IMG/VR virus record: IMGVR_UViG_3300037518_000374 | Location: 1 to 63,021 of that record | Reading direction: 5' to 3' (one strand) | Length of the DNA stretch: 63,021 nt | From: a virus | Taxonomy: Duplodnaviria > Caudoviricetes | Shown: positions 7,201-46,768 of the stretch, piece after piece | How positions within the stretch are numbered: position 1 is the stretch's first letter | Layout of the letters: each line of letters opens with the position of its first letter | The notes under the pieces: model-generated | What the model was told of the DNA's origin: nothing | The model's database searches: none | Seen by the model: only the letters and a program-made list of their open reading frames with translations | Made by a program: the position numbers and the translations under genes

Positions 7201-10200
7201 CTCAAGGGGATAGGCCGTTCCGGTCTCGCTTCGGGCAGCCCGCAACCTCGCGCGCGCGCCCTCGACGCCCGGCGCCCGATATTGGTCGATCTCGGCCTTC
7301 GTCTTCTGAAGCCCGTCGGCGAGTTCCGGGTGTTTTTTCATCCACGTCTGGGTGAACCAGCGGTAGGTCCGGGGCGCCCTGATGGCGGCGTCGTCGTGGG
7401 TCAGGAAGAACCGGACGAACTCCGCGAACCCTTCGTCGGGCCGCATCTGTTCCTGGTCGTAGTCCAGGTCCGATAGTTCGGACTGGACGGTCGAGGGCGC
7501 GAGCGCAACCGCCTGCGTGCCCTTGTCGATCTTGTGCGCCACCTCGTGAGTCGTGACGCCGAGATCGCCGCCGAACTCGCTCTTTCGCCGCACCACCTCC
7601 GGCCTGACCTTGAACTTCCCGGCCATCGGCCCGCGCATCTTTCCGGTGCGGATCGGGACCCTGAACCGGCGCTGCATGTTGGCGATGATTTCGTGGTTGC
7701 TGATAGGCTTTACAGGTCCCTGGGACTTGGGCGGAAGTTCACCCGCGATTTCCGGCGGTGCGTTCTGGACAGGCGGCGGCGGCGGCGTTAACGTCCGCTG
7801 TCCAGTCCTCTTCAGCTCGGCTTCCATCCGCTTCTGGGCGGCCTTGTCGATGTCGGGACGAAGCAATCCCTCTTTCGTAATGACGCCCGATTCCGTAACC
7901 TTTTCGCCCTTGATGTTGGCGCCGAACTCGAAATCGGTCTGCTCGCCCGTCAGCGGCTCCGTCACCTTCTGGCCGAACAGGCCGGCGGGCGGAACCCCGG
8001 GGGCGGCGGGCGGCACCTCGGCTGGCTCCGGCGGAGTCTTTAGCGAACCCTCGTCGATCGCCAGCTCGCTTCCGAGCGGAAGATCGAACGTCAAGCCGTC
8101 CTCGACCCGAACCGTTCCGCCATCCTGGTCAACATCTGTGACACTGTAGGGCTCGCCCGCAACGGTAAACTGCTCCCCCACGTCCAGCATTCCGGTCGGC
8201 ACGACCTCGGGATTCTTTCCCTTGGCCAACTGACTTCCCTCGGGCGATGAACTCACGGCATGGTAATGCTGAAGGTCATACAACTCCTGCGGAGTGAATG
8301 CACCTGGATTCTTGCGGGCGAACTCCATTGTCCGGTCGATCGTTCGCTTTTTGCCGTCATCGTGGAATCGGATGATCCGCTCTGCCATGCGGTCCGTCCC
8401 GATCTCGGACATGACATCCGACCCGGAAGCGCTATTCCATCTCGGATCGCTTTTCCGAACGACCTTGACGTTCATCTGAAGATTCTTGGGCAATCTTTCG
8501 CGAAGCTCACGAGCCGCTGACCGGCCCTCTTTCGTGTCTTTGAAGCTAAAGCCAGATGTCGGCTCGTTAAGGCGCTGGAATTCCTCGACTTCGCCCTCAC
8601 CCGCAATCGACTCGCCAACGTCTTCGCCGCTGATAACCCCTCGCAACCTTTCGTGGATATCCAGAACCCTCTGCTCCGCCTGCTTTATTCCTTTTCGGGA
8701 CGGCCGGCGCGGCTTGGGTGCCTTGGGCTTCAGGTCGGGGTAGTCGGCCAGCACGTCGAGCGGGACAGGCTTACCCGCGCGGACAGCCTGCTTGACCATC
8801 ACTTGGCGAGCATCGCTTAACGCCTTCTGTTTCGATCGTGATCCAACAGAAAGAACTGTCTCGCCTGTCGGCATTCGAACGCGCATGTCCTTTCCGGTTT
8901 TCTGAAGCGTTGCGGCCTGGACGAACTCATCCTTCGTCATCTCCCATGGACGCTTGCCTACCCTCGCTTCTTCTTGCTGACCCGGTGCTTGTGGAACTTG
9001 TCCAACGTCTTCTTGTCCGGGCACTTTCCCTGCATCTTGTCGGGGTTGTGCTCGCAGCCCTTCATGAACCGCTTCTGCTTTTTGCTCTTGTACGGCACGA
9101 CCGATCTCCTGTGTGGGGGTAGGGATTGGCGGCGCCTCGACGGTCGGCGCCTGGGATTCGATGATGGGCGGCTCTCCGGGGGGCCTTGGCCCGCCGCGAC
9201 TACCGAACCGCCCAGACTCGGCCAGGTCCTCCTGGGTCCGCTGCTGTTGCTCCGGCGTCAGCGTACCGGTCTCGCCCTGCGGGCCCAGTGATCCAGGATG
9301 GACCGGCTCAACGAGCGGCGGCGGCTCAATCGCGACGGGCTGGCCAACCGGGGCGGGGGGGGCCTCCGTGCCCGGCCGGACAGGCGGTGGTGTCCGCCCG
9401 AGCCGACCCAATCCTGCCGTGACCGCCTGACCGCCCACGATCGGAACGGCGAACGCCGCCGCCTCCTGACCAAGCTCCGAGAAGGTTGGCAGGCCGCCCT
9501 CCAGCTCCGCTCCTGCCGCCGCGGCCGTCATGCGCAACACGTCCGACACCCGCTCCTCGCCAATCTCCTCCAGGATGCCGTGGTAGCCCGCCTTCTCCAG
9601 ATGCCGCATGAACTGCCTGAACGATCTCCCGCCGTCCGCCATCCAGGCGCCGGCCAGGGCCGCACGGGCGCGACCCAGCGGGACCGTCACGGTTTCGGCG
9701 CCCGGAACCTTGCTTGCGATCTTCGCCACGGCCCGTCCGCCACGCCTCAGCGCCCCGCCGCTCCCCTCCCCCAAAACCTCGAAGGTCGTGTCGAGCGTGG
9801 CGTCCCGAAGGGCGGCGATGAAATCCTGGCCCGGGCTTGCGACGAACGCCTTGAGCGACCCTTCATCGTTGCGGTCGAACCGGTAGTCCGGCATCATGCG
9901 CGCAACGGTGTCGCGTGCGATCCGGGGGCTGAAGGCTGGCAGGCGGGCGATCGTGTCGGCACCAAGGCGGGTCAGGGTAGTCGCGGCCCTTGCGCCCGCT
10001 ACCCTGGATAGCGACTTCTGGACCGCCCTGGCCGCCGCCTTGCGGGCTACCGAGGACACGCCCTTACGCACCAGTGACGCCATGCCGCCCGATGCAAGGA
10101 ACTCGCCGGCGAACGGAACCGTCTCGGTCACGATCCGGGCTGTTCCGCCGCCCCATGTCGTTCCGCGAGCCTGGTTCGCCATATCGCGCTGGAAATCGGC

Positions 10201-10779
10201 CAGCCGTTCCAAATCCTCGGCGCTGGCCCGTCCGTCCTTGGCCCGCTCCGCGGCTCGCCAAACGTCCCAGGTCTTGGCCGCGGTCGCCCATGCGCCATGG
10301 AACGGGATACTCTCCTCCCGCACCGCGCCCGCCAGCACCTCGTCCACCGTTCGGGGCGCGCGCAAAACCGCATTGGGCGATAGCCCGTACTTCTTGCGCT
10401 CGAGGTCCAGGAGCTTCTGACGATACTTGGGCGTCACCTGCTCTTTCGACAGACCCTCCAGGCGGGCGTAGGTGTCGAGTTCGGCCTGACTGGAGAGGAT
10501 GTCCTCCTCGGCCTGCCGGCGGCGCAGGTCGTCCAGTCGCTCGACAGGGGGCTTGGCGGACCGAACCTCGTCCCAGCTTCTGAGGCGCTTGGTTGGTTGT
10601 TCGGGCGCGACAGTAGCCCTGGACGACATCACCTCATCCCACGACCGAAGCTTTCGTGCGGGCCGCACGTCATCCTCAACCGCTCCCGCCTGCGGCGGGG
10701 CCAGCATATCCTGAAGAAACTGGTCGGTGACGCTCGTCCCGTTAGGCACTACTCGAACCCTTGCTCTTTGGCGTTCCAC
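4294..10779 (-). CDS. large polyvalent/internal virion protein with C-terminal LPD38-like domain
   Basis: 2161 aa; HEVAH zincin-like motif, PWEMTKDEF motif, C-terminal IPRPFEYGWLFSALPE (LPD38-like). True start may be the GTG near 10749. Confidence 0.75.
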   Translation of the reverse strand: MERQRARVRVVPNGTSVTDQFLQDMLAPPQAGAVEDDVRPARKLRSWDEVMSSRATVAPEQPTKRLRSWDEVRSAKPPVERLDDLRRRQAEEDILSSQAELDTYARLEGLSKEQVTPKYRQKLLDLERKKYGLSPNAVLRAPRTVDEVLAGAVREESIPFHGAWATAAKTWDVWRAAERAKDGRASAEDLERLADFQRDMANQARGTTWGGGTARIVTETVPFAGEFLASGGMASLVRKGVSSVARKAAARAVQKSLSRVAGARAATTLTRLGADTIARLPAFSPRIARDTVARMMPDYRFDRNDEGSLKAFVASPGQDFIAALRDATLDTTFEVLGEGSGGALRRGGRAVAKIASKVPGAETVTVPLGRARAALAGAWMADGGRSFRQFMRHLEKAGYHGILEEIGEERVSDVLRMTAAAAGAELEGGLPTFSELGQEAAAFAVPIVGGQAVTAGLGRLGRTPPPVRPGTEAPPAPVGQPVAIEPPPLVEPVHPGSLGPQGETGTLTPEQQQRTQEDLAESGRFGSRGGPRPPGEPPIIESQAPTVEAPPIPTPTQEIGRAVQEQKAEAVHEGLRAQPRQDAGKVPGQEDVGQVPQAPGQQEEARVGKRPWEMTKDEFVQAATLQKTGKDMRVRMPTGETVLSVGSRSKQKALSDARQVMVKQAVRAGKPVPLDVLADYPDLKPKAPKPRRPSRKGIKQAEQRVLDIHERLRGVISGEDVGESIAGEGEVEEFQRLNEPTSGFSFKDTKEGRSAARELRERLPKNLQMNVKVVRKSDPRWNSASGSDVMSEIGTDRMAERIIRFHDDGKKRTIDRTMEFARKNPGAFTPQELYDLQHYHAVSSSPEGSQLAKGKNPEVVPTGMLDVGEQFTVAGEPYSVTDVDQDGGTVRVEDGLTFDLPLGSELAIDEGSLKTPPEPAEVPPAAPGVPPAGLFGQKVTEPLTGEQTDFEFGANIKGEKVTESGVITKEGLLRPDIDKAAQKRMEAELKRTGQRTLTPPPPPVQNAPPEIAGELPPKSQGPVKPISNHEIIANMQRRFRVPIRTGKMRGPMAGKFKVRPEVVRRKSEFGGDLGVTTHEVAHKIDKGTQAVALAPSTVQSELSDLDYDQEQMRPDEGFAEFVRFFLTHDDAAIRAPRTYRWFTQTWMKKHPELADGLQKTKAEIDQYRAPGVEGARARLRAARSETGTAYPLEGRSERMGRLFRKVRQVADDRLVELEWAQNLIEEKRGTPLPPKQRFYDMARRLFGAVRSRAEQAYRYGVHSLVDDRKMSDGIVEAVRKIGPITEANVADLTDFMMARHGIETWGFVDKSGTARPKNPGFSLPDAQRVYDALRDRPGFVEAADAITEWNNALVRMYAEVGGLSEESAQAMIDTYPAYVPMFRVLEEYRSGKRRGGGLLDRSKAFFGMKGSPRQVVDVMVAMYTQAERVYAKATANVVRNALIDASRSVDGMGWLVEGPLPTPIKRQTVTLERIAQQLEDAGIDIEQADMDQVLEFFTPTEYVRDGTPMLARWKDGKQEWYEIDPDIYLSASGQNAITLPIWLETILKPAAKMTQAVKLGAVGLKASFGLYRNLVRDVPHSMIQTEGGSMLGALGRIMYGTYLNAKWTIGELRGKPEDQLQQFWKRWGGEFASYFGRDPKSSYRQVRQILQGAEGRSLWNVLSTPLDTIQSIVAIPEGGPRIGEMLEVMRQQGVTEEDIRQGRPVPLGKIVQAFMAGSENTIDFLRGGSLTMFLNKYAAFSQVAVQAPIQALRKSGVMRGDKKRMVRTFVRAGTLLTIPTLVYWWHVKDEDWYRELPAWRKFLAWNLRVGNTTISIPRPFEYGWLFSALPEMLVDAWYRKEPQTVADGFGQFLKTQVPHWTDFVPDAGLLPLELKMNYDLWRDQPIVDDRLRETRMPQDQFYQYNTLASRYIGQLIHKSPAAIDHAIRNATGGMGIDILRAFEPITKGSPEIMERVKRVLGFSSVGQTIGRGVSLDNFYGELGRLQQKKGSLKTAGSEDSAVTKALYRMEWTADILSEVRDVVRAMPNRQDQLREERYLTGLSRFGLGKEELPEFPNILTDDRLSEPLRNIRDQHLQRKAFAAAQNPASENVDTRINKQESIRRSREILDELDIDNRERRLLLTREYRRRGYKTDMIDDNGNLTSFGSALRRLYRRQMLKE
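8958..9098 (-). CDS. nested small basic protein in an alternative frame (MPYKSKKQKRFMKGCEHNP...)
   Basis: AGGAG 7 nt before GTG; 46 aa; resembles the small phage MP(F/Y)KSxxQxRFM family; lies inside the 2161-aa gene. Confidence 0.55.
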   Translation of the reverse strand: MPYKSKKQKRFMKGCEHNPDKMQGKCPDKKTLDKFHKHRVSKKKRG

Positions 10780-35999: not shown

Positions 36000-36050
36000 C
36001 GGGACTCCTAAACCAAAACGGGACTCCGGGACAGAAACGACCGGGACTCC
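36000..36050 (+). repeat. three CGGGACTCC direct repeats, possible pac/terminus signal
   Basis: Copies at 36000, 36019 and 36042, just beyond the terS stop and near a C-tract. Confidence 0.55.
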
Positions 36051-36157
36051 GAAACGAAAACAGCCAACGTGAGCGAACGGGAGGGTAATGTTACCTGAAT
36101 AGGAAGGGCAGGCCAAAGCGACAGGGTGGTTATCGGACCACTGCCCCCCCCCTACCC

Positions 36158-36583
36158 CTACCCCGTATCGCCCTGCCCCACGATTGCCCGGATATCTTCC
36201 AGCGTGGTGCCGGGCTGGCTGAGCAGCTGCCGCACGTACACGAGGAGCTGTACGGCCTCGTTGCGTCTCGCGTCGGCCTCCAGCGTGCCCTGCCGCACCA
36301 CCTCGCGGACGCAGGCCGAGAGGTCGAAGGACGGCACGGCCGCGGCCGCCCGTGCCCCCTTCGGCGTCAGGTTGGCCACGACGCGGGCGTACTGGCCCGG
36401 GTCATCGGAGTACAGCCGGTCGAGGGCCTGCTGGTAGCGCTGCCGTCCGGCGTCGGTGTCGATCCAGCCGGCGTGATCCGCCGCCTGCTTGACCACCGAA
36501 TCATAGTCGGTCTTGGCCAAGCGCTTCTGTCCGCTACCGGGCGGGCGCTCCAGGAATCGGCCGTGATCGTCTCGCTTGACCAT
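36158..36583 (-). CDS. terminase small subunit (putative)
   Basis: RDDHGRFLERPPG N-terminal motif; first gene of the late operon. Confidence 0.55.
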   Translation of the reverse strand: MVKRDDHGRFLERPPGSGQKRLAKTDYDSVVKQAADHAGWIDTDAGRQRYQQALDRLYSDDPGQYARVVANLTPKGARAAAAVPSFDLSACVREVVRQGTLEADARRNEAVQLLVYVRQLLSQPGTTLEDIRAIVGQGDTG

Positions 36584-36791
36584 ATCGCGCCTCAAAGCAG
36601 ATACGGACCGGTCGGACTGTGTAGGCTGACGATCCTGTATTACAACGTACTACATGCCCCACACCGGGGCAAGAGCGGCCGCGGGCCTATAGCGGAAAGT
36701 CCCTGCGTCCCCTCTCTTTCGCCCCTATGTGCCCTGGTCCTTGGTCTTCTGTCGCTCCGCCCCTACGGGGCGGTTTTGGTTGTGTCCGCCC

Positions 36792-37028
36792 CTACGGGAT
36801 GGCTTCCTCGTCCCGTGCTCTGTATCTCTGTTTGTCTGTCTGATCGAGTTGTGGTGGGCGCTCCAGCCGCTCGCGGATAGCCTGGCGGATCCACGCTCCG
36901 ACTCGGCCTGGCCGGCCGGCGGCTGCGCGTATTCGTCCGAGCAGCGATTCCCCGACCGCGACCCGTATCTGGATATCGAGCGGCTCGTCTTCGAGCATGA
37001 ATCCCGGTTTTCGTCCTCGCTTGGCCAC
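36792..37028 (-). CDS. ribbon-helix-helix DNA-binding protein (leaderless)
   Basis: IQIRVAV beta strand plus two helices (WIRQAIRERL). Confidence 0.6.
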   Translation of the reverse strand: MAKRGRKPGFMLEDEPLDIQIRVAVGESLLGRIRAAAGRPGRVGAWIRQAIRERLERPPQLDQTDKQRYRARDEEAIP

Positions 37029-37034
37029 GCCCTC

Positions 37035-37105
37035 ATTATACGCTCGTTATTTTTTTTGTCTACCATGTCTTTTCGCTTGCATTCATCCGATTCGTGTGGT
37101 ATAGT
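37035..37105. promoter_or_regulatory. divergent sigma70-like promoters
   Basis: Plus strand: TTGCAT (37077), N17, TATAGT (37100) with extended TG. Minus strand: TAGACA (37062), N16, TATAAT (37040). Confidence 0.7.
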
Positions 37106-37162
37106 TAAATCGTCGGTCATGGTGGCCGGCAGGTTGCGGCGAAAGCCGCGGGAGGAATCGCG

Positions 37163-37414
37163 ATGATGACCGAGACCGAGATTGACAGGATCGTCGATGA
37201 GCTGCAGGCCAGCATCTACCGCGACGCAAGCATCTACCGCGGCCACGCCACAACCGCGGCCGCGGCCGCGTGCCTAGATCAGCCGCCACAGGTGGTCCGC
37301 GGCCTGATGGCGCGCGTCCGGCTCGACACACACCTAGGCCCCATGTACACAGACGAGCTGGCCGGAGAGATCCTCCGACTTGGTCGCGAGCGCGACCGCG
37401 ACGCTGGCCGCTGA
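37163..37414 (+). CDS. early hypothetical protein
   Basis: GGAGGA RBS preceded by a hairpin. Confidence 0.6.
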   Translation: MMTETEIDRIVDELQASIYRDASIYRGHATTAAAAACLDQPPQVVRGLMARVRLDTHLGPMYTDELAGEILRLGRERDRDAGR

Positions 37415-37496
37415 CCTCGCCGGCGATGGCACCTCACAAGGTGCCTCAGCCGATGCGGTCATGGTGGCCCATCAGGCGCCCTACGGGGCTGGAGGA

Positions 37497-37772
37497 ATGA
37501 CGATTATGACGCGCGAACAATTGCAGACGGCGCTGGCGCTGGCCACAAGCCGGCGCGGGCTGAATCTGGACGATCTGGCCCTATTCGACAGATTCGGGCT
37601 GCCTGATTTCAAGCCGGTCACGTGCACGGTCTCGGCGCTGGCCATGCTGGTCCGGTGGCAATGCATCTGCTTCAACGGGTCGATCGACCCCGACGCGCTG
37701 GACGAAATCGCGAGCATCGGCCGGCATCGTTTCTTGGTACTGGGCGACGAAGCCGGAAAGGCGGCGACGTGA
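37497..37772 (+). CDS. early hypothetical protein
   Basis: GGAGGA RBS, MTIMTREQ start. Confidence 0.6.
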   Translation: MTIMTREQLQTALALATSRRGLNLDDLALFDRFGLPDFKPVTCTVSALAMLVRWQCICFNGSIDPDALDEIASIGRHRFLVLGDEAGKAAT

Positions 37773-38407
37773 TGCTGGCCGAGAAATACAGGCCGCGGAC
37801 GTTCGCGGATGTCATCGGGCAGGACAAGGTAATCCAGGCGGTTCGCTGGTATCTGGACCAGCCTACGGAGTCGGGCAAGGCGTTTCTCTTCACCGGTCCG
37901 AGTGGTTCGGGCAAGACCACGCTGGCGGAATGCGCGGCCCGGCATTGGGGCATCGTGGACTATGACATGCACCGGATCGAATCGGCCGAGTGCAGCGTCG
38001 ATGCGCTCCGGCAAGTCGCGTCCGACATGATGCTTTGCGGCTGGGGGCCGACCGGCCGCAAGCTGTACGTCATCGACGAGATTCACACCGTCACGGGCCG
38101 CGCGGCCGATCGGCTGCTGTCCCTGCTCGAAACCCTGCCGTCGCACGTGCTGGTCGTCGGAACCACAACGGAAAGCGATTGGACGGACGGCATCCTGCTG
38201 TCGCGCTGGGTCCGGTTCGAGCTGGCCAAGGTCCGATCGACGGACGTGGCGGCGCACCTGGCCGACATCGCCCAGCGCGAGGGGCTGCCGATCCCGCCCG
38301 ATCCCAAGTGGGCCGACAAGCTCGTAAAGTACTTTGGGCTGAACATGCGCGACCACCTGAACCAGCTCCCCGCCCGGCTGTTCGGCGGCGCGACGGTAGC
38401 GGCATGA
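37772..38407 (+). CDS. clamp-loader-type AAA+ ATPase (DnaX/RFC-like, truncated)
   Basis: LAEKYRPRTFADVIGQ, GPSGSGKTT, YVIDEIH, LLSR. Confidence 0.85.
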   Translation: MLAEKYRPRTFADVIGQDKVIQAVRWYLDQPTESGKAFLFTGPSGSGKTTLAECAARHWGIVDYDMHRIESAECSVDALRQVASDMMLCGWGPTGRKLYVIDEIHTVTGRAADRLLSLLETLPSHVLVVGTTTESDWTDGILLSRWVRFELAKVRSTDVAAHLADIAQREGLPIPPDPKWADKLVKYFGLNMRDHLNQLPARLFGGATVAA

Positions 38408-38485
38408 ATCGCACGGAGCCCGCGTAGGGCTCCGACTCGGGCGGCCGGAGCGCAGGCCGCAGGCGCCGCGGGAGCGGCGGGAGGA

Positions 38486-38689
38486 ATGGCGATGACACCG
38501 AAAGACTGGGCCTACACCGCACTGGAACCGGCGACACGAAGAGCCGAGGCTGAAGAGCGCGCCACTGGAGAGCGGCGATACGTGGTTCGATCGACTCCCG
38601 ACAATGGTGAGCGATGGTTTTATGAGGTGGTGTCGAGAATGCCCCTTGTCGGCGAGTGGTACGACTCTCATGGCATCCGGCACGGTTGA
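38486..38689 (+). CDS. early hypothetical protein
   Basis: GGAGGA RBS, 67 aa. Confidence 0.55.
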   Translation: MAMTPKDWAYTALEPATRRAEAEERATGERRYVVRSTPDNGERWFYEVVSRMPLVGEWYDSHGIRHG

Positions 38690-38769
38690 CCTCGCCGGCG
38701 AGCGCCCCGCGGGGCGCCAGCCGATGCGGTCACGGTGGCCGGCAGGTTGCCCCGATGGGGCAGGGAGGA

Positions 38770-39099
38770 ATGACGATGACGACGGCTACGAACAAAGACC
38801 TGATGGCAAAGATCGAAGAAGTGGCGGCGGCAATCCAAGAATCGGTCAACGCATACTTCGCGAACCGATTCCCGTCTCTGACTCCAGACAAGGTGAATAT
38901 CAGGGGGCGCTCTAAGTTTGTTGCGATTGACATCGGCACGAGCGGCGCCTTTCTGGTCGAAAAGGCCACCGGTGAGTTGTTCAACATACAGGCGTATGGC
39001 CGCCCCGACCGGAACAAGAAGCGCAAGGCAGACATCGGCAACGTCTACACCGTGGACGGTTCGACGCTGTTCGCCAAACGTTACAACAGCCTGCGCTGA
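38770..39099 (+). CDS. early hypothetical protein
   Basis: Hairpin plus GGAGGA leader; SGAFLVEKATGELFNIQAYGRP. Confidence 0.65.
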   Translation: MTMTTATNKDLMAKIEEVAAAIQESVNAYFANRFPSLTPDKVNIRGRSKFVAIDIGTSGAFLVEKATGELFNIQAYGRPDRNKKRKADIGNVYTVDGSTLFAKRYNSLR

Positions 39100-39250
39100 C
39101 CTCCAGCCCGGTTCGGGTGGGCCTGCGGGCCTGCCCGGGCCGGGCGCCTTGGGGCCGCTCCTGCGGGAGCTGCCCCCGCTGGGAGCCCGCGTAGGGCTCC
39201 GGCCGGGCGCCGGGCGGCGTGGCGCAGGTTGCCCCGATGGGGCGGGAGGA

Positions 39251-39553
39251 ATGACGATGACGACCAAGACCAAGACGGCAGCAAAGCACACGCCGGGTCC
39301 GTGGAGGGTTGCGACATTCGATGACCAACTGGAGGTGATACGCGACTTCGCGCAGTCGATCTGCAGCATGTGCCGAACCGACGGCGGGGCGAACGCCCGG
39401 CTGATTGCGGCCGCGCCGGAGCTGGCGGAGGCGTGCCGACGGCTGACGAAGGCCCAGCCCTGCAACTGCCGATCGGTCAAGGTCGTAGCGGGGCCAGACG
39501 CGGTATGTGACTCGTGTTTCGGCCTTGCCGCGCTCGAGAAGGCCGGTATCTGA
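39251..39553 (+). CDS. phage protein of the HTPGPW / NARLIAAAPEL family
   Basis: Both motifs present; hairpin plus GGAGGA leader. Confidence 0.7.
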   Translation: MTMTTKTKTAAKHTPGPWRVATFDDQLEVIRDFAQSICSMCRTDGGANARLIAAAPELAEACRRLTKAQPCNCRSVKVVAGPDAVCDSCFGLAALEKAGI

Positions 39554-39638
39554 TCCTCCTGCCCGGGCCGGTGCGGGCGTGGATTGCCCGCCCGGCTCGG
39601 GCGCCTTTTGACCGCCCCAATGGGGCTGGGAGAACACA

Positions 39639-40202
39639 ATGAAAACCGACACACTGTGCACCGGCCCGATCCCGCCGCACCTGGCGCAGTACGGGTGGTA
39701 CGCGCCACATCAGGCGTGGCTGCGCGACCGGGGCCACAAGCACCATGACCCTGGTGCGGCGGACCCAATCCGGGCGAACCTGAGCTGGTCGAACCTGAGC
39801 GAGACGAACCTGAGCGGGTCGGACCTGAGCGAGACGAACCTGAGCGGGTCGAACCTGAGCGGGTCGAACCTGAGCGAGACGAACCTGAGCTGGTCGGACC
39901 TGAGCGGGTCGGACCTGAGCGAGACGAACCTGAGCGGGTCGAACCTGAGCGGGTCGAACCTGAGCGGGTCGGACCTGATCCGGGCGGACCTGAGCGGGAC
40001 GAACCTGAGCGGGTCGAACCTGAGCGAGACGAACCTGAGCGGGTCGAACCTGAGCGGGACATCGTTCTGCGGCGCCTGCATCGACGGCGCAATCCTGGAC
40101 CCGGACGCCCTGTGTGGCCCGGGCCACATACTCTGTGCACTCACGGACGCTGAGTGGGCACTGATTCAGAGCGGGCGCAACGAACAGGAGAACTCGAAAT
40201 GA
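39639..40202 (+). CDS. pentapeptide repeat protein
   Basis: Tandem (S/T/A)(N/D)LS(G/E/W) repeats; 15-bp DNA periodicity at 39774-40058. Confidence 0.9.
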
Positions 40203-40429
40203 GCGGCCCACACCACCCCTACATGTATCTCGGTGACGGCGTCTACGCCACCTACGACGGATACCAGATCGTGCTCGACCTGCGCGGACAGGACAGCACC
40301 ACCAAAATCGCGATGGAGCCGGCCGTATTCGAGGAGCTGGTCCGCTTCGCCTGCCGATTCTGGTCGGCCGACTCGATCATCGACGTGGCGAGATCGACCC
40401 CGCCCCGCCCCAAAGGAGACAGGACATGA
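40199..40429 (+). CDS. phage hypothetical protein (YLGDGVYA family)
   Basis: ATGA-coupled; conserved-looking motif. Confidence 0.65.
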   Translation: MSGPHHPYMYLGDGVYATYDGYQIVLDLRGQDSTTKIAMEPAVFEELVRFACRFWSADSIIDVARSTPPRPKGDRT

Positions 40430-40560
40430 GCGAGAAACGTAACCCAATCGTGCGGGGCGGGCAGGGCCGCAGCGAGCAAGAGCTGATCGATCAGGCCGTC
40501 GTGCTGATGGCGTGCGCAGTGCTGGCGGTGCTGTGCCTGCTGGTGGAGGTGCTGACATGA
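40426..40560 (+). CDS. small membrane protein
   Basis: 44 aa, AAGGAG RBS, C-terminal hydrophobic helix, coupled at both ends. Confidence 0.5.
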   Translation: MSEKRNPIVRGGQGRSEQELIDQAVVLMACAVLAVLCLLVEVLT

Positions 40561-41210
40561 CGGGCTACAAGCTCACAGACCAACACGCCCAAACCCACGG
40601 CGGCCTCCAGTGGGGGGCGGGCATCACGCACGAAACCGACGGATCGGGCGAGCTGTGCGGCCCGGGCTGGCTGCACTTCTACAGCGATCCGGTCGTGGCC
40701 GTCATGCTGAATCCGATCCACGCCAACTTCCCCGAACCCCGGCTATGGCGCTGCGAGGTCGGGGCCGTGCAGAAACACGACCACGGACTGAAATACGGCA
40801 CAACCAGCCTTACGACCATAGAGGAGATTCCGCTACCGGTCGTCACTACCACGCAGCGTGTCCGCTTCGCGATCCTGTGCGCCAAACAGGTCTACACCGA
40901 TCCCGCATGGAATCAGTGGGCCGATGACTGGCTCTCCGGCCGAGACCGATCATCGGCGCGGGCGCGGGCGGAGGCGCGGGCGGGGGCGGGGGCGGGGGCA
41001 CGGGCGGCCGCGCGGGCGGCGGCACGGGCGGCTATGGAGGCGGCGGCGCGGGCGGCTATGGAGGCGGCGGAGGCGGCGCGGGAGGCGGCGGAGGCGGCTA
41101 TGGATGCGGCGGAGGCGGCGGAGGCGGCTATGGGGGCGGCGGCCCACGGCCGCACCCTCGACCTGGCGGCGCTGGCCGAAAAGGCCATGCGCGAGGAGGT
41201 GCTGACGTGA
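40557..41210 (+). CDS. phage protein with Ala-rich low-complexity tail
   Basis: YKLTD..T, LCGPGWLHFY, WNQWADDWLSG, AAxAA repeats. Confidence 0.7.
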   Translation: MTGYKLTDQHAQTHGGLQWGAGITHETDGSGELCGPGWLHFYSDPVVAVMLNPIHANFPEPRLWRCEVGAVQKHDHGLKYGTTSLTTIEEIPLPVVTTTQRVRFAILCAKQVYTDPAWNQWADDWLSGRDRSSARARAEARAGAGAGARAAARAAARAAMEAAARAAMEAAEAAREAAEAAMDAAEAAEAAMGAAAHGRTLDLAALAEKAMREEVLT

Positions 41211-41590
41211 TTACCCCCGAGATGATTGCCGCGGCAGCTTGCCTAACACTCGCCACCGTGGGCGTCGTCCACCTCGCGTTGTCGGTCCTGCGCTTTTTCG
41301 GACGGCTCGGACGCGCGATAGGCCGCAGCGCCCCCCGCGTGGCTCGTGATCCGCAACCCGCCCGAGCACGCCGTCGGGTCGTGGCGAGCGTCACGGCTAC
41401 GACGCCAACGCTCCCAACCGCCATCGACACACCGACCCTCACGCCCGAGCAGCAGGACGCGGTAGTGGTCCTGACCAAACTCGGCGAGCACAAGGGGCGG
41501 GCCGAGGACGTGCTGCGTCACGTGGTGGGGCGTCCCGATGTCCAGACGGTTGAGCAATGGGTTGAGCTGTACTACCAGCTCAGACCGTAG
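41207..41590 (+). CDS. TM-anchored protein with RuvA-C/UBA-like C-terminal helices
   Basis: DAVVVLTKLGEHKGRAEDVL...TVEQWV resembles RuvA domain III. Confidence 0.5.
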   Translation: MITPEMIAAAACLTLATVGVVHLALSVLRFFGRLGRAIGRSAPRVARDPQPARARRRVVASVTATTPTLPTAIDTPTLTPEQQDAVVVLTKLGEHKGRAEDVLRHVVGRPDVQTVEQWVELYYQLRP

Positions 41591-41618
41591 GTGCCCCGAT
41601 GGGGCAGGGAGAATAACG

Positions 41619-43280
41619 ATGGTGATTTGGACCTACGGGGCCAAGGCCCCGAAACTCGGCGGAGAATCGATCAGCGATCAGATGCGGATGGCCCACCGGT
41701 ATCGCAACACGCTCGTCGAGATCGAGTTGCGGCGGCGCGAACGGGCGAGTCAGATCATCCGCCAGCAGTGTCCCGAGGTGCTGGAGATCGACGACGCGAT
41801 CTCACGCCTCGATGACCAGATCGACACCGCCGCCGCCGCCGTCAGGACGGCGAACCAGTCGGCCCGCTCCCGGACCGTGACGGCGGAGCAACGGTCCGAG
41901 ATCAAGGCCCTGCGCGCAGAGCGCAAACCGCTGTACGCGAGGCGCAAACTACTGCGAGCAGAACAGTTCGGGGAGGGCTCGATTTCCCGCGCGCTCCTCG
42001 ACGGGGCCGACGCCGAGTCGGTCGCCGAAGTCAAGGCCGCGCGGGCGGCGTGCGGGTGCTACTGGGGGACCTACCTGCTGATCGAGGCGGCGGCCAAGCA
42101 GTTCCGCAAGGGCACGCCCCCACGATTCACTTCGTATCGCGGATACGGGCGCGTGGGGGTCCAGTTCCAGGGCGGGCTGCCGTTCGGCGCCGCACTGAGC
42201 GGCGCGGATAAGCGGCTCCAGCTCGTGCCCACGAACAATCCGCGGTGGCGAACCTGCCGAATGAGGATCGGCAGCAACGCCGACCGCTCGCCAATCTGGG
42301 CCGAGTGCCCCGTCAGGCTGCATCGCCAGCCGCCGGACGGCGCGGTGATCAAGTGGGCATGGCTCAAACGTACACCGCGAGGCCCGAACCGCCGTATTGA
42401 CGAGTGGTCGCTCCAGGTGGTGCTGGACGGTGTTCAGCCGCTCGCCGAGCAGCGGCCCGGACCCGGATTCGGCGCGGTCGCGGTCGATGTGGGGTGGCGA
42501 TGGCTGGGCGATCGGCTCCGCGTGGCCTACTGGGTCGGGCTCGACGGCCGGTGCGGCGAGCTGGCGATCGGCGAGCACGACCTGGATCGGTGGCTCTATG
42601 CCGACGTACTCCAATCTGAACAGGATCGTCGGTTCGACGCGATGCGCGCGCACATCATCGCGTGGCGCGAGCGGGTGGGGCCGGCGATGCCGGACTGGCT
42701 CGCCGAAGCGTTCGCCACGTTGCCCAAGTGGCGCTCGACTGGACGACTGGCCGCACTCTGCCGGCGGTGGGGGCAGGAGCGGGTCGATGGTGATGCCGAG
42801 CTGATGCCGGTACTCGATGAGTGGATGAAGCGAGACTGTCGCCTCCACACCGAGCGGTCGTGCCTGCTGAAGAAGGCGGCGCGATGGCGAGAGGACCTAT
42901 ACCGCCAGTTCGCTGCCGACCTGCAGAACCGATACCAGACCCTACTGGTCGAGGACGCCGACTGGCGTGACCTCTTGCGCGCACCGGACGTGACGGACGA
43001 GGACGAGACCAATCGGCGCCGCCGGTACGCCCGAATTGCGTCGCCCGGCATGATGCGTCAGATTCTACGTGCGTGCGGGCGTGCGGTGAAGCTCGCGAGC
43101 GAGTACACTACGCAGCGATGTGGTGCGTGCGGAGAAATAGAGGCGTTCGACGCGGCGGAGAATCTCGTGCACACATGCCGGCATTGTGGCGCGCGATGGG
43201 ATCAGGACGAGAATGCGTGCCGGATCATGCTGGGACTGCATTCCGGCGAGTTGGCCCCGGCGAGCGGACCGGTGGCCTGA
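41619..43280 (+). CDS. cas12m: miniature type V CRISPR effector, Cas12m (V-U1)-like, 553 aa
   Basis: AHRYRNTLVEIE, long coiled coil, YWGTY, VGVQFQ, RLHRQPP, AVDVGWR (RuvC-I D290), LVED (E445), IASPGMMR, CxxC...CxxC, WDQDENA (D530); adjacent to a CRISPR array. Confidence 0.8.
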   Translation: MVIWTYGAKAPKLGGESISDQMRMAHRYRNTLVEIELRRRERASQIIRQQCPEVLEIDDAISRLDDQIDTAAAAVRTANQSARSRTVTAEQRSEIKALRAERKPLYARRKLLRAEQFGEGSISRALLDGADAESVAEVKAARAACGCYWGTYLLIEAAAKQFRKGTPPRFTSYRGYGRVGVQFQGGLPFGAALSGADKRLQLVPTNNPRWRTCRMRIGSNADRSPIWAECPVRLHRQPPDGAVIKWAWLKRTPRGPNRRIDEWSLQVVLDGVQPLAEQRPGPGFGAVAVDVGWRWLGDRLRVAYWVGLDGRCGELAIGEHDLDRWLYADVLQSEQDRRFDAMRAHIIAWRERVGPAMPDWLAEAFATLPKWRSTGRLAALCRRWGQERVDGDAELMPVLDEWMKRDCRLHTERSCLLKKAARWREDLYRQFAADLQNRYQTLLVEDADWRDLLRAPDVTDEDETNRRRRYARIASPGMMRQILRACGRAVKLASEYTTQRCGACGEIEAFDAAENLVHTCRHCGARWDQDENACRIMLGLHSGELAPASGPVA

Positions 43281-43428
43281 GAATCGCGGTACCCGCTCGA
43301 TATCACGTGGTGACAATGGGATACGGCGTTTTCGGGGTGGGGCTCGGGTGATGGAAATTAGAACAAACAGGGACCGCTCGAAACGTACCGCGCAACTGTC
43401 TGCCGAATCGCGGATTGCGACGCGGGCC
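43281..43428 (+). promoter_or_regulatory. CRISPR leader
   Basis: Non-coding gap between the cas stop and repeat 1; CCGCTCGA occurs twice. Confidence 0.55.
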
Positions 43429-44779
43429 GTCTCGGCCCGTGCGCAGACGGGGATACTCTGCGACAAAACCATCCCATCCTTGATGCGGACTGACTCGCCT
43501 GTCTCGGCCCGTGCGCAGGCGGGAATACCCTGCGACTGCCGGTGCCAAGGCAGGAGGACTACGGCGCTGACTTCGTCTCGGCCCGTGCGCAGGCGGGAAT
43601 ACCCTGCGACTCATCGCGCACCCCCGCGCACGCTGCGGACGGCCGGGTCTCGGCCCGTGCGCAGGCGGGAATACCCTGCGACTTCGCCGCCAGATCACGG
43701 CGCACGACCTCGGGCTTCGTCTCGGCCCGTGCGCAGGCGGGGATGCTCTGCGACGACCGCAAAGTGGTGCTCCGCTTCAAGGAGCGTCTCAGCCCGTGCG
43801 CAGACGGGGATGCGCTGCGACGCCCTGGGCGTGGTCGGCAAACTGCCGGCTGTCCGATGTCTCAGCCCGTGCGCAGGCGGGAATACCCTGCGACTACCCC
43901 GGGTGCTTGTCGAAGGGCGTTTGTCGCAGAGTCTCGGCCCGTGCGCAGGCGGGAATACCCTGCGACGCCTGGTCGGTCGTCTCAGCCCGTGCGCAGACGG
44001 GTATGCTCTGCGACGATCGCATCGGTGTACGCCCGGAGGAACGAGCCGTGTCTCAGCCCGTGCGCAGGCGGGGATACTCTGCGACGGTCAAGGTGGCCTT
44101 GCCGTCGATCTTCAAGGTGAACGTCTCAGCCCGTGCGCAGGCGGGGATACCCTGCGACCGACGATTCGCAGGTGTCGCAGAGTATCCCCGTCTGGTCTCG
44201 GCCCGTGCGCAGACGGGTTTGCTCTGCGACGCACTCAGCGCGATTCGTTCCACGGTATCTGCTGCGTCTCGGCCCGTGCGCAGGCGGGAATACCCTGCGA
44301 CGCCTGGTCGGTCGTCTCAGCCCGTGCGCAGGCGGGGATACTCTGCGACGGCCAAAGCCCTGCTCTCCGGCGCTTCGTCGTCTCGTCTCGGCCCGTGCGC
44401 AGACGGGGATGCTCTGCGACGCCTTCCAGCAATTCCATCCAATTCAAGCTGCTGGCAGTCTCAGCCCGTGCGCAGACGGGGATGCTCTGCGACGCCTTCC
44501 AGCAATTCCATCCAATTCAAGCTGCTGGCAGTCTCAGCCCGTGCGCAGGCGGGGATACTCTGCGACGAGTCGGGCCGGGGCCGCGTATCCATTGTCTCTT
44601 GGTCTCGGCCCGTGCGCAGACGGCAATACTCTGCGACCGGCACGGTTGGGGGCGATCCCTTCGACCCCGTCAGTCTCAGCCCGTGCGCAGACGGCAATAC
44701 TCTGCGACGAGTCGCCCCGGGGCCGCATACTTATTGTCCTTGGGTCTCAGCCCGTGCGCAGACGGGGATGCTCTGCGAC
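43429..44779 (+). CRISPR. CRISPR array, 20 x 36-bp repeats, 19 spacers
   Basis: Repeat 1 is GTCTCGGCCCGTGCGCAGACGGGGATACTCTGCGAC, with variants at seven positions; spacers 31-38 nt except two of 12 nt; spacer 15 = 16 and 8 = 13. Confidence 0.98.
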
Positions 44780-44815
44780 TTCCAGTGGGTCTGCGGCCCG
44801 CCGCCGGACGAATGG

Positions 44816-45121
44816 TCACGCCGGGGGGTCCTGCACCGCCGGCAGCACCACCGCCCGCGTCCCCCACGACTCACAGGACGGGCAAAAAGCATGCTGCCCG
44901 AACACCGCCCCGCCGTGCGCCAGCACGAACCGCCCCCCGCAGTGCTCACAAATGCGGGTCTCGTGAGTGCCGCTCAGGCTCGATACGACCGCATCCCATT
45001 CGATCGCTGGGCGTTCCGCCGCGTGGCACCGGTGGCAGAGCCCGATGGTCGTGTTGGGTGTGGACCGCCCGCACTGTCGGCATTCGGTCGTGGGGCGTGG
45101 CCCTCGTCTGATCGGCATCAC
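44816..45121 (-). CDS. multi-zinc-finger small protein
   Basis: Four CxxC pairs; converges on the CRISPR array. Confidence 0.6.
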   Translation of the reverse strand: MMPIRRGPRPTTECRQCGRSTPNTTIGLCHRCHAAERPAIEWDAVVSSLSGTHETRICEHCGGRFVLAHGGAVFGQHAFCPSCESWGTRAVVLPAVQDPPA

Positions 45122-45474
45122 GCCCTCTCCGCCGAACGCGCGACCGTCCAGTCCTTCAGCGGCCATTCGCCGACGCTACGCAACCACCCAACCAGCGACT
45201 CGGATAGCAGAACATCCAGCTCTTGCGTCGCCTCGACATCGAAATGGTGATACGTGAGGCAGTCGTCCAGTCTCATCGCGACGTGATCGAGCACCGCGTG
45301 ACCCAGCCCGCGTCGGATGTCCGCCACCTCGACCTCCACCACCTGATCGAGCCAGACCTCGCCCGGCCCCTCCTGGTGGGCCGCCTCGACGGCCTCGTGT
45401 TTGGTGCGGAATCGTCCGTGCCAGTCCTCGGAATCTGTGCTCCTCGCCCATGCCCAATCGCCGGTCGGTCTCAT
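45118..45474 (-). CDS. phage hypothetical protein
   Basis: WHGRFRTKHEAV motif; coupled. Confidence 0.6.
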   Translation of the reverse strand: MRPTGDWAWARSTDSEDWHGRFRTKHEAVEAAHQEGPGEVWLDQVVEVEVADIRRGLGHAVLDHVAMRLDDCLTYHHFDVEATQELDVLLSESLVGWLRSVGEWPLKDWTVARSAERA

Positions 45475-46247
45475 TGTGTCGCCTCCTCTTCGTACATCAT
45501 GGATTGCGTCTCTGCGGGCGCGGCGGGCGGCGGGCTGAACGGCAGCACGTCCTGGGCGAGTCGCCGGGCCGCGATCTCGCAGTAGCGCTCTTCGATCTCG
45601 ATGCCGATCCCGGAACGCCCCAACAATTTAGCCGCAATCAATATCGAGCCAACACCCATGAACGGGTCCAACACTCTCGCACCAGAATCAGATGAGTTAC
45701 GGATTATCGGCGAACATACCGATGGTGGTTTTTCTGTCGGATGCACCTTCTTGGATATGCCAGATGCACGGACAATATCCCCCATTTCCAAACACCGCAG
45801 CTTGTGTTTCTGGTTCGGGCAGTAGGCAATCCATTCGTGCGTGCGTCTCCATGCGTAACCCATTCCAATCTTCTGTTTGTCCCACACGATCACATTGCGC
45901 GGACGCAACCTGTAGTTTATCTCAATCCCGCTCTTAACATCAGTGAATACGTAAAGTGCACCGGTGTTGCGCAGCAGTTTTCGGCACTCCGCCCAAACGA
46001 AATCAAGATCGTCAAACGACATGGTTCCGAACCACGGCATGCCATCGGCAGCGGCCAATCGCTTCCCGTTGAATCTGTCGCGTGAAACCAGTCTTGTCGT
46101 GCTTCCCCAACTAACATCGACATCAAGAGACTGATACGGCGGGTCCGTAAGTACGAGGTCGATCGAATCCCGCTCCAGCGCCGGCAACACCTCGCGGGCA
46201 TCGCCGTGGTAAATCGTGATCCCGGCATTGTCATAATAGAGGCTCAC
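45471..46247 (-). CDS. N6-adenine/N4-cytosine DNA methyltransferase (beta class)
   Basis: LTDPPY, HPTEKP, VLDPFMGVGS. Confidence 0.9.
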   Translation of the reverse strand: MSLYYDNAGITIYHGDAREVLPALERDSIDLVLTDPPYQSLDVDVSWGSTTRLVSRDRFNGKRLAAADGMPWFGTMSFDDLDFVWAECRKLLRNTGALYVFTDVKSGIEINYRLRPRNVIVWDKQKIGMGYAWRRTHEWIAYCPNQKHKLRCLEMGDIVRASGISKKVHPTEKPPSVCSPIIRNSSDSGARVLDPFMGVGSILIAAKLLGRSGIGIEIEERYCEIAARRLAQDVLPFSPPPAAPAETQSMMYEEEATQ

Positions 46248-46768
46248 AAACCACCCCCAGCGCGCTCCAACACCCACCGCTGAATCGCAATCGCGTCCTG
46301 CTCGAACGGATGCAGATGCCCGCGCCCCGCCGCCCAGTCCCGCAGCGGCGGCATCGCGACCCCCTCCCGCTCCTGCACGACGTGCCACACCTCGTGGCAC
46401 ATCGCCGCCACGCCGGCGGGGCTTCGGTCAAGGCACTCGCGGCACCCAGGCCCCCGCTCGTGGCCGAGCTGGCCGGGACTGAGCAGCAGCGTGCCGCCCA
46501 GCACGAAGTAGGGGCTGGGACCGCCCACACGCAGGCTGAGCTTGCCCAGCGTCGCGATCCGTGGATCCAGCGCGGCCGGCACGGGGCAGATGTCGCGCTC
46601 CGCCAGACCGTGGGCGCGGCAGTACAGGTCGATCCAGCGTTCCGTTTCGTCGCACAGGTCGGGCGGGAGCTGGCCGTACTGCCGGACGTGCTGCTCGGCC
46701 GCGTTGTAGGCCGGCTGGGGTCCGTTGCATGCGGCCAGCAGCAGTAGGATCGGGGCGGCGCGGTTCAT
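46244..46768 (-). CDS. lipoprotein with HExxH zincin-like motif
   Basis: Lipobox LAAC; HEVWHVVQ ... HPFEQDA. Confidence 0.65.
   Translation of the reverse strand: MNRAAPILLLLAACNGPQPAYNAAEQHVRQYGQLPPDLCDETERWIDLYCRAHGLAERDICPVPAALDPRIATLGKLSLRVGGPSPYFVLGGTLLLSPGQLGHERGPGCRECLDRSPAGVAAMCHEVWHVVQEREGVAMPPLRDWAAGRGHLHPFEQDAIAIQRWVLERAGGGL

Follow-up and report, generated by a model that had tools for sequence, protein, structure and literature searches.

The 63,021-nt window analyzed here, a linear virus fragment held in IMG/VR as IMGVR_UViG_3300037518_000374 and rated 71% complete, carries a Cas12m effector gene followed by a CRISPR array. The open reading frame (ORF) at positions 41619-43280 is a full-length Cas12m (type V-M, formerly V-U1). 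On balance, the locus is likely to be a phage-borne Cas12m DNA-binding interference module that is used in conflicts with other mobile elements. Profile, PDB, fold and array evidence agree on a phage-carried effector of the Cas12m/V-U1 type that comes with an array of its own, which is what a first-pass annotation of the same sequence had proposed; the coordinates, length, repeat count and residue numbers given there were all correct. As a kind, a phage Cas12m with an intact Asp-Glu-Asp (D-E-D) RuvC triad and no adaptation genes is already in print; the definition of the D-E-D clades dates from 2022-23 and their testing from 2024, and a phage D-E-D Cas12m is described in a 2026 preprint. The present locus is of value mainly as a further divergent, compact Cas12m that shares at most 47% identity with cluster representatives and for which the structure is well predicted and the CRISPR RNA (crRNA) defined. 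The core of the module is laid out as follows.

41594-41613, + strand: leader with a 6-bp hairpin (TGCCCC-GAT-GGGGCA) and then the Shine-Dalgarno sequence GGGAGAA, 5 nt 5' of the cas12m ATG
41619-43280, + strand: cas12m gene, 553 aa, domain order WED-REC-RuvC-TNB
43281-43428, + strand: 148-nt stretch from the cas12m stop codon to the first repeat, presumed leader of the array
43429-44779, + strand: CRISPR array in which 20 repeats, each 36 nt long and together of 13 variants, alternate with 19 spacers; 17 spacers measure 31-38 nt and 2 measure 12 nt

Identity of the effector

The ORF runs on the + strand from an ATG at 41619 to a stop codon at 43278-43280 and lies inside a longer frame (41538-43280). 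The ATG at 41619 is supported as the true start because the hairpin and Shine-Dalgarno leader precedes it. The PADLOC model for Cas12u1, the old name of Cas12m, matches residues 2-538 over profile positions 4-527 of 533 (E 4e-82). A second PADLOC model, PDLC01692, is labelled Cas12f and has 532 positions. It, too, matches from end to end (E 3.3e-74); judged by its length and coverage, we take it to be a V-U1-type profile under a Cas12f label. When all PDB sequences are searched with phmmer, the best match is the Cas12m of entry 23vw (E 1.2e-54, 189 bits, residues 5-539), and MmCas12m2 (1.5e-16, 63 bits), GoCas12m of 8pm4 (6e-15, 58 bits) and UnCas12m4a (1e-12) are also found. Chains of the Cas12f and TnpB type match at E 2e-4 or worse and only along residues 487-536, the zinc-ribbon.

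Structure prediction, which had been proposed as a check, points to the same family. The AlphaFold model built from 61 sequences is confident (predicted local distance difference test, pLDDT, 93.5; predicted template modelling score, pTM, 0.83), and its bilobed WED-REC1/2-RuvC-TNB fold is closest to those of Cas12m. All of the first four Foldseek ranks are Cas12m proteins, with Cas12m2 and GoCas12m best (E 5e-28 to 5e-23; query TM-score, TMq, 0.59-0.67), in a library that runs to April 2026 and has 23vw outside it. The next family is Cas12f (E 5e-11, TMq 0.37-0.44), and TnpB reaches a TMq of 0.30-0.37. Among the viral fold models of BFVD, none is of Cas12m grade, the best being TnpB/Fanzor-like with a TMq of 0.28-0.44.

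It is extremely improbable that the protein is instead a TnpB-like transposon nuclease with an omega-RNA, or a decaying relic, beside which the array is incidental. Such an origin would suit the Pfam result, in which the C-terminal zinc-ribbon domain PF07282 (E 3.4e-7, a Cas12f1-like TNB) is the sole match, as well as the PHROGs label of 'transposase' for the C-terminal part, the unusual heterogeneity of the repeats and the two spacers that are too short. The clustering with TnpB and the use of an omega-RNA that the first-pass annotation had set out as the contrary case are not borne out by the curated cut-offs of NCBIfam, which are missed (guided_TnpB, 21.9 bits vs 100; IS200_TnpB, 9.9 vs 425), by the TnpB folds, which stay at 0.30-0.37 vs 0.67 for Cas12m, or by Rfam, in which no family matches positions 36000-46000 at E<=0.1, with a limited coverage of omega-RNAs. 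The ORF is also intact with its family-invariant residues, the repeat variation spares or compensates the stems, and no repeat copy lies outside the array. Cas12f (type V-F) and IS200/IS605 TnpB have the RuvC and zinc-ribbon core in common with the window protein but differ in fold (TMq 0.30-0.44) and by the array that is present here; in the window there is no tracrRNA-like anti-repeat outside the array and no omega-RNA match.

The family is large, with 3,302 members at E<=1e-3 and 1,678 at E<=1e-30 when counted by cluster representatives. The best full-length cluster representatives are 46-47% identical to the window protein. A word-indexed search returned 84 matches at E<=1e-10, the best at 43% identity, and a single-protein scan of genome contigs returned no relative. 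Judged by these searches, the window protein is a divergent, compact member of a large, already described family.

Repeats, spacers and array history

The succession of a 553-aa ORF, a short leader and a 20-repeat array stands as first annotated, and no + strand terminator-like site was found in the 148 nt of 43281-43428. Repeat matches number 20 against 0.11 expected by chance. Those to the repeat core lie 20 of 20 in the array, all on the + strand, with anti-repeat stretches only inside spacers 7 and 11, and the system is predicted to be free of a trans-activating crRNA (tracrRNA). In the predicted pseudoknot, repeat positions 8-11 pair with 20-23 and 14-19 with 29-34, followed by a G·A pair (13·35) and the terminal C, so that the repeat ends in GAC. 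Within the array, 97.7% of the pseudoknot cells are paired, compared with 30-51% when the partners are slid. Variation in the stems is confined to pair 19:29, which covaries (AU 7, GC 3, GU 2, other 1 over the 13 distinct repeats). Across 10 repeats from 8 loci, 92% of the cells are paired, 8 of 10 pairs show compensatory changes, and the covariation score is reached by none of 500 shuffles. The direction of the array is that of cas12m because the G-U pairs fit the + strand RNA only.

The protein retains the residues that would read such a handle. H235 is nearly invariant and R236 invariant among the aligned relatives, and both, in the WED domain, align with His269/Arg270 of MmCas12m2, which read C(-1), the last base, and the G:A pair of the handle according to the structural account in PMC10442227. 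By the covarying pair in the array and the compensatory changes between loci, the repeats appear to keep the Cas12m pseudoknot handle. The repeat does not differ from the known Cas12m type, with 36 nt, a pseudoknot and a GAC end.

The repeats vary at positions 6, 19, 23, 24, 25, 27 and 29. These fall within the loop, the covarying pair and the 5' segment, which in known crRNAs is either trimmed away or disordered. Heterogeneous arrays also occur in relatives, which are given here by locus number where needed: the phage Rctr197k (KX853510.1) has 11 variants among 18 repeats, with heterogeneity in the distal ones, an archaeal contig (L015) has 26 among 46, and L002-L004 are heterogeneous as well. 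Other relatives have uniform arrays, with 1 variant in 23 repeats (L006), 2 in 11 (L009) and 3 in 10 (L005).

Two of these related loci display unit lengths of their own. Behind the Cas12m-like gene of a 180-kb IMG/VR contig lies an array (L003:7766-9125; the same in L002 and L004) of at least 27 units of 45-51 nt, each made of a 28-nt minimal repeat, which holds both pseudoknot stems via many compensatory changes, and a spacer of 17-22 nt. These units are roughly of mature-crRNA size, and the two 48-nt units of the window (36 + 12 nt) have the same unit length. In the archaeal metagenome-assembled genome (L015:1-4700), arrays flank the Cas12m-like gene; the upstream one is very heterogeneous with some 52-nt units, and the downstream one is nearly uniform.

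The following parts of the window array bear on its history.

43895-43930, + strand: spacer 7, 36 nt; on the opposite strand it reads as the final 8 nt of the repeat, as found in 12 of the 20 repeats, and then 28 nt foreign to the array
43967-43978, + strand: 12-nt spacer 8, the same string as spacer 13; its block at 43926-44015 is duplicated at 44261-44350 (90 nt, 94% identical)
44159-44194, + strand: spacer 11, 36 nt; on the opposite strand it reads as the final 21 nt of the repeat, an exact match to repeat 1 alone, and then 15 nt foreign to the array
44302-44313, + strand: 12-nt spacer 13, identical to spacer 8
44421-44530, + strand: spacer 15, repeat 16 and spacer 16, a duplicated unit

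Spacers 15 and 16 are identical over 37 nt each and represent a tandem duplication of a 73-nt unit, and spacers 17 and 19 are 74% alike. The pattern points to an array that would have changed slowly by duplication, deletion and mutation under selection on the handle, and not by recent growth at the leader end.

The complementarity of spacers 7 and 11 to the repeat was found by an inverted-repeat scan. Both are of normal length and are set between complete repeats. The exact junction register is present in 2 of the 16 distinct long spacers, compared with 32 of 200,000 shuffled spacers, and in none of 100 spacers from seven related loci. On the simplest reading, the two spacers would have been copied from the bottom strand of a second array of the same repeat family, at its repeat-to-spacer junctions. 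The source would be the array of a relative or of a host-resident element, or the present array at an earlier stage. Read in this way, spacers 7 and 11 would provide direct evidence of length-measured acquisition at some time and of conflict with an array-bearing element. They would also constitute sequence evidence that such arrays take DNA from, and aim at, arrays of the same kind. The ordinary length of the two array-derived spacers is compatible with the earlier proposal of spacer acquisition in trans, but no acquisition machinery or host was identified. A narrow literature search turned up, among the papers listed, no description of array heterogeneity or junction-derived spacers; the idea of spacers aimed at CRISPR arrays may still have been published.

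Spacer 11, and perhaps spacer 7, could alternatively act as an antisense anti-repeat, the RNA of which pairs with its own or rival handles and regulates or sequesters crRNAs, or makes a double-stranded RNA processing site. Spacer 11 is exactly complementary over 21 nt to the handle part of repeat 1, and the hairpin of repeat 11 with spacer 11 folds at -37.4 kcal/mol, compared with -24.3 for shuffles. Such a role is quite improbable, however, given that Cas12m requires no tracrRNA in the systems described in PMC11013384, that both elements have an ordinary spacer length between complete repeats, that spacer 7 has just 8 complementary nt, and that none of the 100 spacers in the 7 related loci matches the repeat end, so that the arrangement is not conserved in the family.

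Mode of action and targets

The RuvC domain's catalytic residues and the zinc finger inserted in it are encoded at the following positions.

42486-42488, + strand: codon of D290 (RuvC-I); D in 56 of 61 aligned relatives
42951-42953, + strand: codon of E445 (RuvC-II); E in 54 of 61
43119-43187, + strand: CCCC zinc finger of the TNB; C501, C504 and C520 in 61 of 61, C523 in 58 of 61
43206-43208, + strand: codon of D530 (RuvC-III); D in 60 of 61

The alignment consists of the window protein and 60 of the 84 word-indexed matches (61 sequences). The three residues align with the D/E/D of 23vw, in keeping with the canonical triad first assigned to them, and with the H/D/D of MmCas12m2. The full D-E-D triad is present in 51 of the 61 sequences; an intact triad is the rule, not the exception, in this part of the family. 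The first-pass annotation had treated it as a distinguishing mark that hints at a nuclease, against a background of known Cas12m proteins from which the D-E-D members were left out. This contrast is not supported, given the 51 D-E-D sequences and the four tested D-E-D orthologues that do not cut.

Cas12m has been divided into clades by triad (HEK/HQK in the first, HDD in the second, DED/NED in the third and DED/DND/NED in the fourth) in the scheme given in PMC10442227, and the window protein, assigned by triad alone, has the Asp-Glu-Asp of clades 3 and 4. In the assays that Bigelyte et al. describe for eight Cas12m orthologues (four D-E-D, two H-D-D, two N-D-D), double-stranded DNA (dsDNA) is cut by none (PMC11013384). 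Six of the eight bound dsDNA in a manner dependent on a protospacer adjacent motif (PAM), two purified complexes were without collateral DNA or RNA cleavage, and the RuvC mutant D274A of MsCas12m still processed pre-crRNA, as reported in the same source. The nuclease inference loses most of its force because D-E-D is common and tested D-E-D members bind without cutting.

It is unlikely that the D-E-D RuvC is active and that the phage Cas12m cuts or nicks rival or host DNA, as CasPhi and Cas-lambda of other phages do. The canonical triad in 51 of 61 relatives and the intact zinc finger would fit such an activity, two-metal DNA hydrolysis is suggested for clades 3 and 4 in PMC10442227, and a preprint on myxophage MV-1 suggests likewise for its D-E-D protein (10.64898/2026.09.14.751636). 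On the other side stand the four out of four tested D-E-D proteins that failed on dsDNA, with no collateral activity where this was assayed (PMC11013384), and MmCas12m2, in which the change from HDD to DED failed to restore cutting in the experiments of PMC10442227. The closest solved homologue, 23vw, has D/E/D at the aligned columns and was named a DNA-binding protein by its depositors, and no sequence feature separates the window protein from its non-cutting relatives. A triad that is strongly conserved in a family of 1,678 clusters (E<=1e-30), yet of which no tested member cuts, is a puzzle for which the phage members offer a further test case.

Searches for the targets of the spacers covered the window itself, viruses, plasmids, metagenomes and bacterial genomes. 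Within the array-masked window, blastn-short with all spacers gave at best a 13-nt exact match (E 0.02), with noise at a looser threshold, and self-targeting was rejected; the 12-nt spacer has no other copy in the window at <=1 mismatch, and its use as an autoregulatory guide was likewise rejected. The whole array matched nothing in the phage collection at E<=1; in plasmids it gave 3 weak matches (E 0.03-0.4), none of which is confined to a spacer. Exact-prefix scans of IMG/VR returned 0 matches each for spacers 1, 10, 12, 15 and 17/19 (the last as a degenerate pattern), the prefix of spacer 15 had 0 matches in JGI metagenome contigs, and eight metagenome-assembled genomes that encode relatives gave matches at chance level only. 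The bacterial samples comprised 401 genomes from each of three phyla, a fourth draw having apparently repeated one sample. In these samples, the array had 7 matches at E<1e-4, at least 4 of which cross a repeat boundary. The boundary-crossing matches, including those to a ribosomal protein L23 gene and a monooxygenase-like gene, were rejected as protospacers as they run through the repeat. A match of spacer 10 to an OmpA-like gene, the only one in step with the edges of a spacer, agrees at 25 of 26 nt before it diverges; it scores no better than the chance matches, and all 7 were rejected.

The region 43690-43770, from the end of spacer 4 through repeat 5 to the start of spacer 5, exhibits a recurrent weak similarity (77-84% over 40-65 nt) to GC-rich genes, among them a Streptomyces plasmid ParA gene and an actinobacterial monooxygenase-like gene. 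These matches are taken as compositional and not as targets because they run through the repeat. Mean spacer GC is 63.3%, and that of the window 62.8%.

The array could also serve as a hard-wired guide set against the host, with natural CRISPR interference (CRISPRi) of host genes for defence, receptors or transcription during infection. Cas12m silences transcription by binding in the accounts of PMC10442227 and PMC11013384, the leader is common to a module that includes the clamp-loader-like ATPase and pentapeptide-repeat genes described below, and the array displays duplication and drift instead of polarized growth. Nevertheless, a host-directed role is decidedly unlikely: among the three-phylum samples no spacer matches a bacterial genome convincingly, and the only spacers of identifiable origin derive from a CRISPR array and not from a host gene. 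These two spacers, which would come from an array of the same repeat family, make the use against rival elements that was first suggested plausible.

The reading of the locus as a DNA-binding interference module against other mobile elements can be formulated as a series of steps. Cas12m would be translated from the hairpin and Shine-Dalgarno leader that is common to three neighboring genes, and the array would be transcribed with or after cas12m and cut into crRNAs with a 5' handle and a 3' guide. By analogy with every tested Cas12m, including the D-E-D members, the complex would bind PAM-flanked dsDNA and block transcription or replication without cutting. The targets would be mobile elements other than the phage, at the minimum a relative, or an element resident in the host, that bears an array of the same kind. 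The spacers of standard length would once have been inserted by a length-measuring integrase supplied in trans, and later change in the array would have come mainly from unit duplication, deletion and point mutation under selection for handle structure.

Several observations weigh against this reading. A protospacer was found for no spacer in any collection searched, and hence neither target nor PAM is inferred. The supposed rival array was not seen, as the repeat pattern has 0 matches in IMG/VR and JGI metagenome contigs, a scan that near-identical records may escape. Repeat 1 differs from repeats 2-4 at three positions, unlike recent acquisition at the leader end. Repeat 11 and spacer 11 fold on themselves into a hairpin of ~20 bp (z -3.7 for the energies given above), and in this predicted fold guide 11 could be disabled. 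The strong conservation of the triad (D 56, E 54 and D 60 of 61) is unexplained for a pure binder. Lastly, the tested orthologues are distant, with MmCas12m2 and GoCas12m at 63 and 58 bits, 23vw at 189 and the nearest relative at 46-47% identity.

A possible, though doubtful, extension is that the non-cutting Cas12m serves as an anti-CRISPR. Spacers 7 and 11 would guide it to the repeat-spacer junctions of an array in a rival phage or a host-resident element, blocking array transcription or pairing with rival crRNA handles, and the guide set would be inherited and slow to evolve, held functional by selection on the handle, instead of a growing memory. The own array would probably be spared, since it matches only the PAM-distal part of guides 7 and 11 and leaves the PAM-proximal part unmatched. 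The two junction-derived spacers would make conflict between mobile elements, perhaps as silencing of CRISPR by CRISPR, testable in a very small system.

Genomic setting and related systems

The cas12m gene is the final gene of a + strand block (~37.1 to 44.8 kb) that stands apart by GC skew and codon-position GC, most other genes being on the - strand; a 148-nt gap and then the array follow it. The leader motif CCCCNATGGGGCNGGGAGAA has 4 copies in the window compared with 0.13 expected, all on the + strand, at 38750, 39232, 39615 and 41594, and each lies 5-6 nt upstream of an ATG (38776, 39257, 39639 and, for cas12m, 41619). This distribution suggests that the four leader-bearing genes form a small co-regulated set. 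A hairpin leader with a ribosome-binding site in common with neighboring genes had been part of the first-pass annotation and is borne out by the four sites. Where cas12m was also called early-expressed, the shared leader motif suggests co-regulation and does not show early timing. Other features of the window are listed below.

38750-38769, 39232-39251 and 39615-39634, + strand: three further hairpin and Shine-Dalgarno leaders, by motif match
37622-38407, + strand: clamp-loader-like AAA+ ATPase (phrog_5846, E 1e-38), in the same + strand block as cas12m
39639-40202, + strand: pentapeptide-repeat protein (Pfam PF00805, E 1.6e-34), with the same leader as cas12m
40512-41210, + strand: weak DUF7666 match with an Ala/Glu-rich tail from GC-rich short tandem repeats (40955-41143), same block
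44816-45166, - strand: small zinc-ribbon/HNH-like protein (phrog_1271, E 8e-6), immediately beyond the array and encoded opposite to it
45471-46400, - strand: DNA methyltransferase (phrog_67, E 1e-52), behind the array on the opposite strand
4294-10779, - strand: 2,161-aa ORF among structural genes, no assigned function
35-107, - strand: tRNA-Ile, anticodon TAT, at the contig end

By PHROG matches, the window encodes a portal and a large terminase, together with an internal virion protein, a helicase and a DNA methyltransferase. The terminase and portal match cultured phages at 20-28% identity only, and IMG/VR offers short terminase segments, so that no close phage relative was found. Nineteen tandem copies of a 15-nt repeat (39771-40058) underlie the pentapeptide-repeat gene. 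Pentapeptide-repeat proteins can mimic DNA, and a counter-defence role for the protein at 39639-40202 is conceivable. As first annotated, cas1, cas2 and cas4 are absent from the window: their profiles have 0 matches in the record, which at 71% completeness does not cover the whole phage, and the same profiles match 6-9 of 14 control genomes.

The cas12m locus was recovered in contigs of four sediment-metagenome runs. Positions 41400-43530 are covered by contigs of two of these runs (X1 and X4) with 0 differences; pieces from the other two runs and pieces of the array have 0-1 differences, and in each run the array is covered in part. Odd joints and loose ends of these contigs in GC-rich stretches resemble other organisms and were given no weight. 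Across the sediment runs, the module is intact and stable; among the 19 sequencing runs listed, no RNA run that holds it appears.

The characterized V-M systems resemble the window locus in most respects. The window protein is like Mm/GoCas12m (PDB 8hhl/8hio and 8pm4), MsCas12m and TfCas12m in size (553 vs ~580-600 aa), in fold and in a RuvC with an inserted zinc-finger TNB, and the locus shares with V-M systems a single crRNA from 36-nt, GAC-ending pseudoknot repeats, the His-Arg reader and the lack of adjacent adaptation genes. MsCas12m and TfCas12m are D-E-D orthologues with the triad of the window protein. Identity to the Mm and Go proteins is 21-23% in structural alignment, and the zinc finger is CCCC in the window compared with HCCC in MmCas12m2 as given in PMC10442227. 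The nearest solved sequence, 23vw (577 aa), has the same D/E/D columns and CxxC...CxxC motif and is still distant at 189 bits; a literature search found no paper on PDB 23vw/23vu or on the names Cas12m3/Cas12m4. The window differs from the V-M types in its carriage by an uncultivated tailed phage, its 13 variants among 20 repeats, its two 12-nt spacers and the two spacers that would derive from an array of the same family.

A locus of like kind is that of MvCas12m in myxophage MV-1, which a September 2026 preprint calls the first phage Cas12m (10.64898/2026.09.14.751636). As reported there, it is a phage V-M locus with an adjacent array and a D-E-D triad (D305/E463/D555), and with no cas1/2/4, tracrRNA or protospacers. 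It differs from the window in protein length (610 vs 553 aa), a temperate phage with an integrase, a wastewater-biofilm assembly, one consensus repeat and eight spacers. Seven other virus records also hold a Cas12m-like gene at 29-34% identity to the window protein, namely Rctr197k (32%) and the IMG/VR contigs L002-L007, and most are far larger than the window (125-197 kb). A same-strand array of at least 9 units lies just downstream of the gene in 6 of the 7 records, and L007 has three downstream copies and a five-copy upstream mini-array. No repeat-junction-derived spacer was found in the parsed virus loci L001 (Rctr197k), L005, L006 and L007. In a FastTree phylogeny of 139 family members, six virus rows are scattered with 5 changes, at least 4 of them forced by supported branches, and the window protein groups with two metagenomic proteins only (support 99).

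Clade tables of Cas12m were reportedly given by Wu et al. in 2022. A Cas12m search that included IMG/VR listed 134 variants (PMC11013384); that list and the clade tables may already contain virus-borne or close members. Viral effectors that cluster with Cas12m are described in landfill viromes (PMC12607003), and a 2024 review places V-M on plasmids and 'some prophages'. The mini-CRISPR arrays of archaeal viruses and the plasmid type IV and V-M systems, as presented in PMC11656645, are alike in being CRISPR parts of mobile elements that lack an adaptation module and are aimed at related elements. Unlike these, the identifiable targets of the window array would be rival array junctions, and the effector is phage-encoded.

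The Cas12m-like gene of Rctr197k is annotated as a misc_feature 'similar to transposase' beside an annotated CRISPR region. The same phage has a second, unrelated array (locus 628-882) beside another 'transposase-like protein', and two small RNA-guided systems may coexist in it. Among the genome contigs, L009 and L010, one from a genome labelled Pseudomonadota and one from a Polyangiaceae genome, apparently share a phylum sample, with the same genomes listed and the same single match; if they do, the three closest genome-contig relatives of the window protein would belong to one GTDB phylum. That possible common phylum is the one with a recently described Cas12m-bearing phage.

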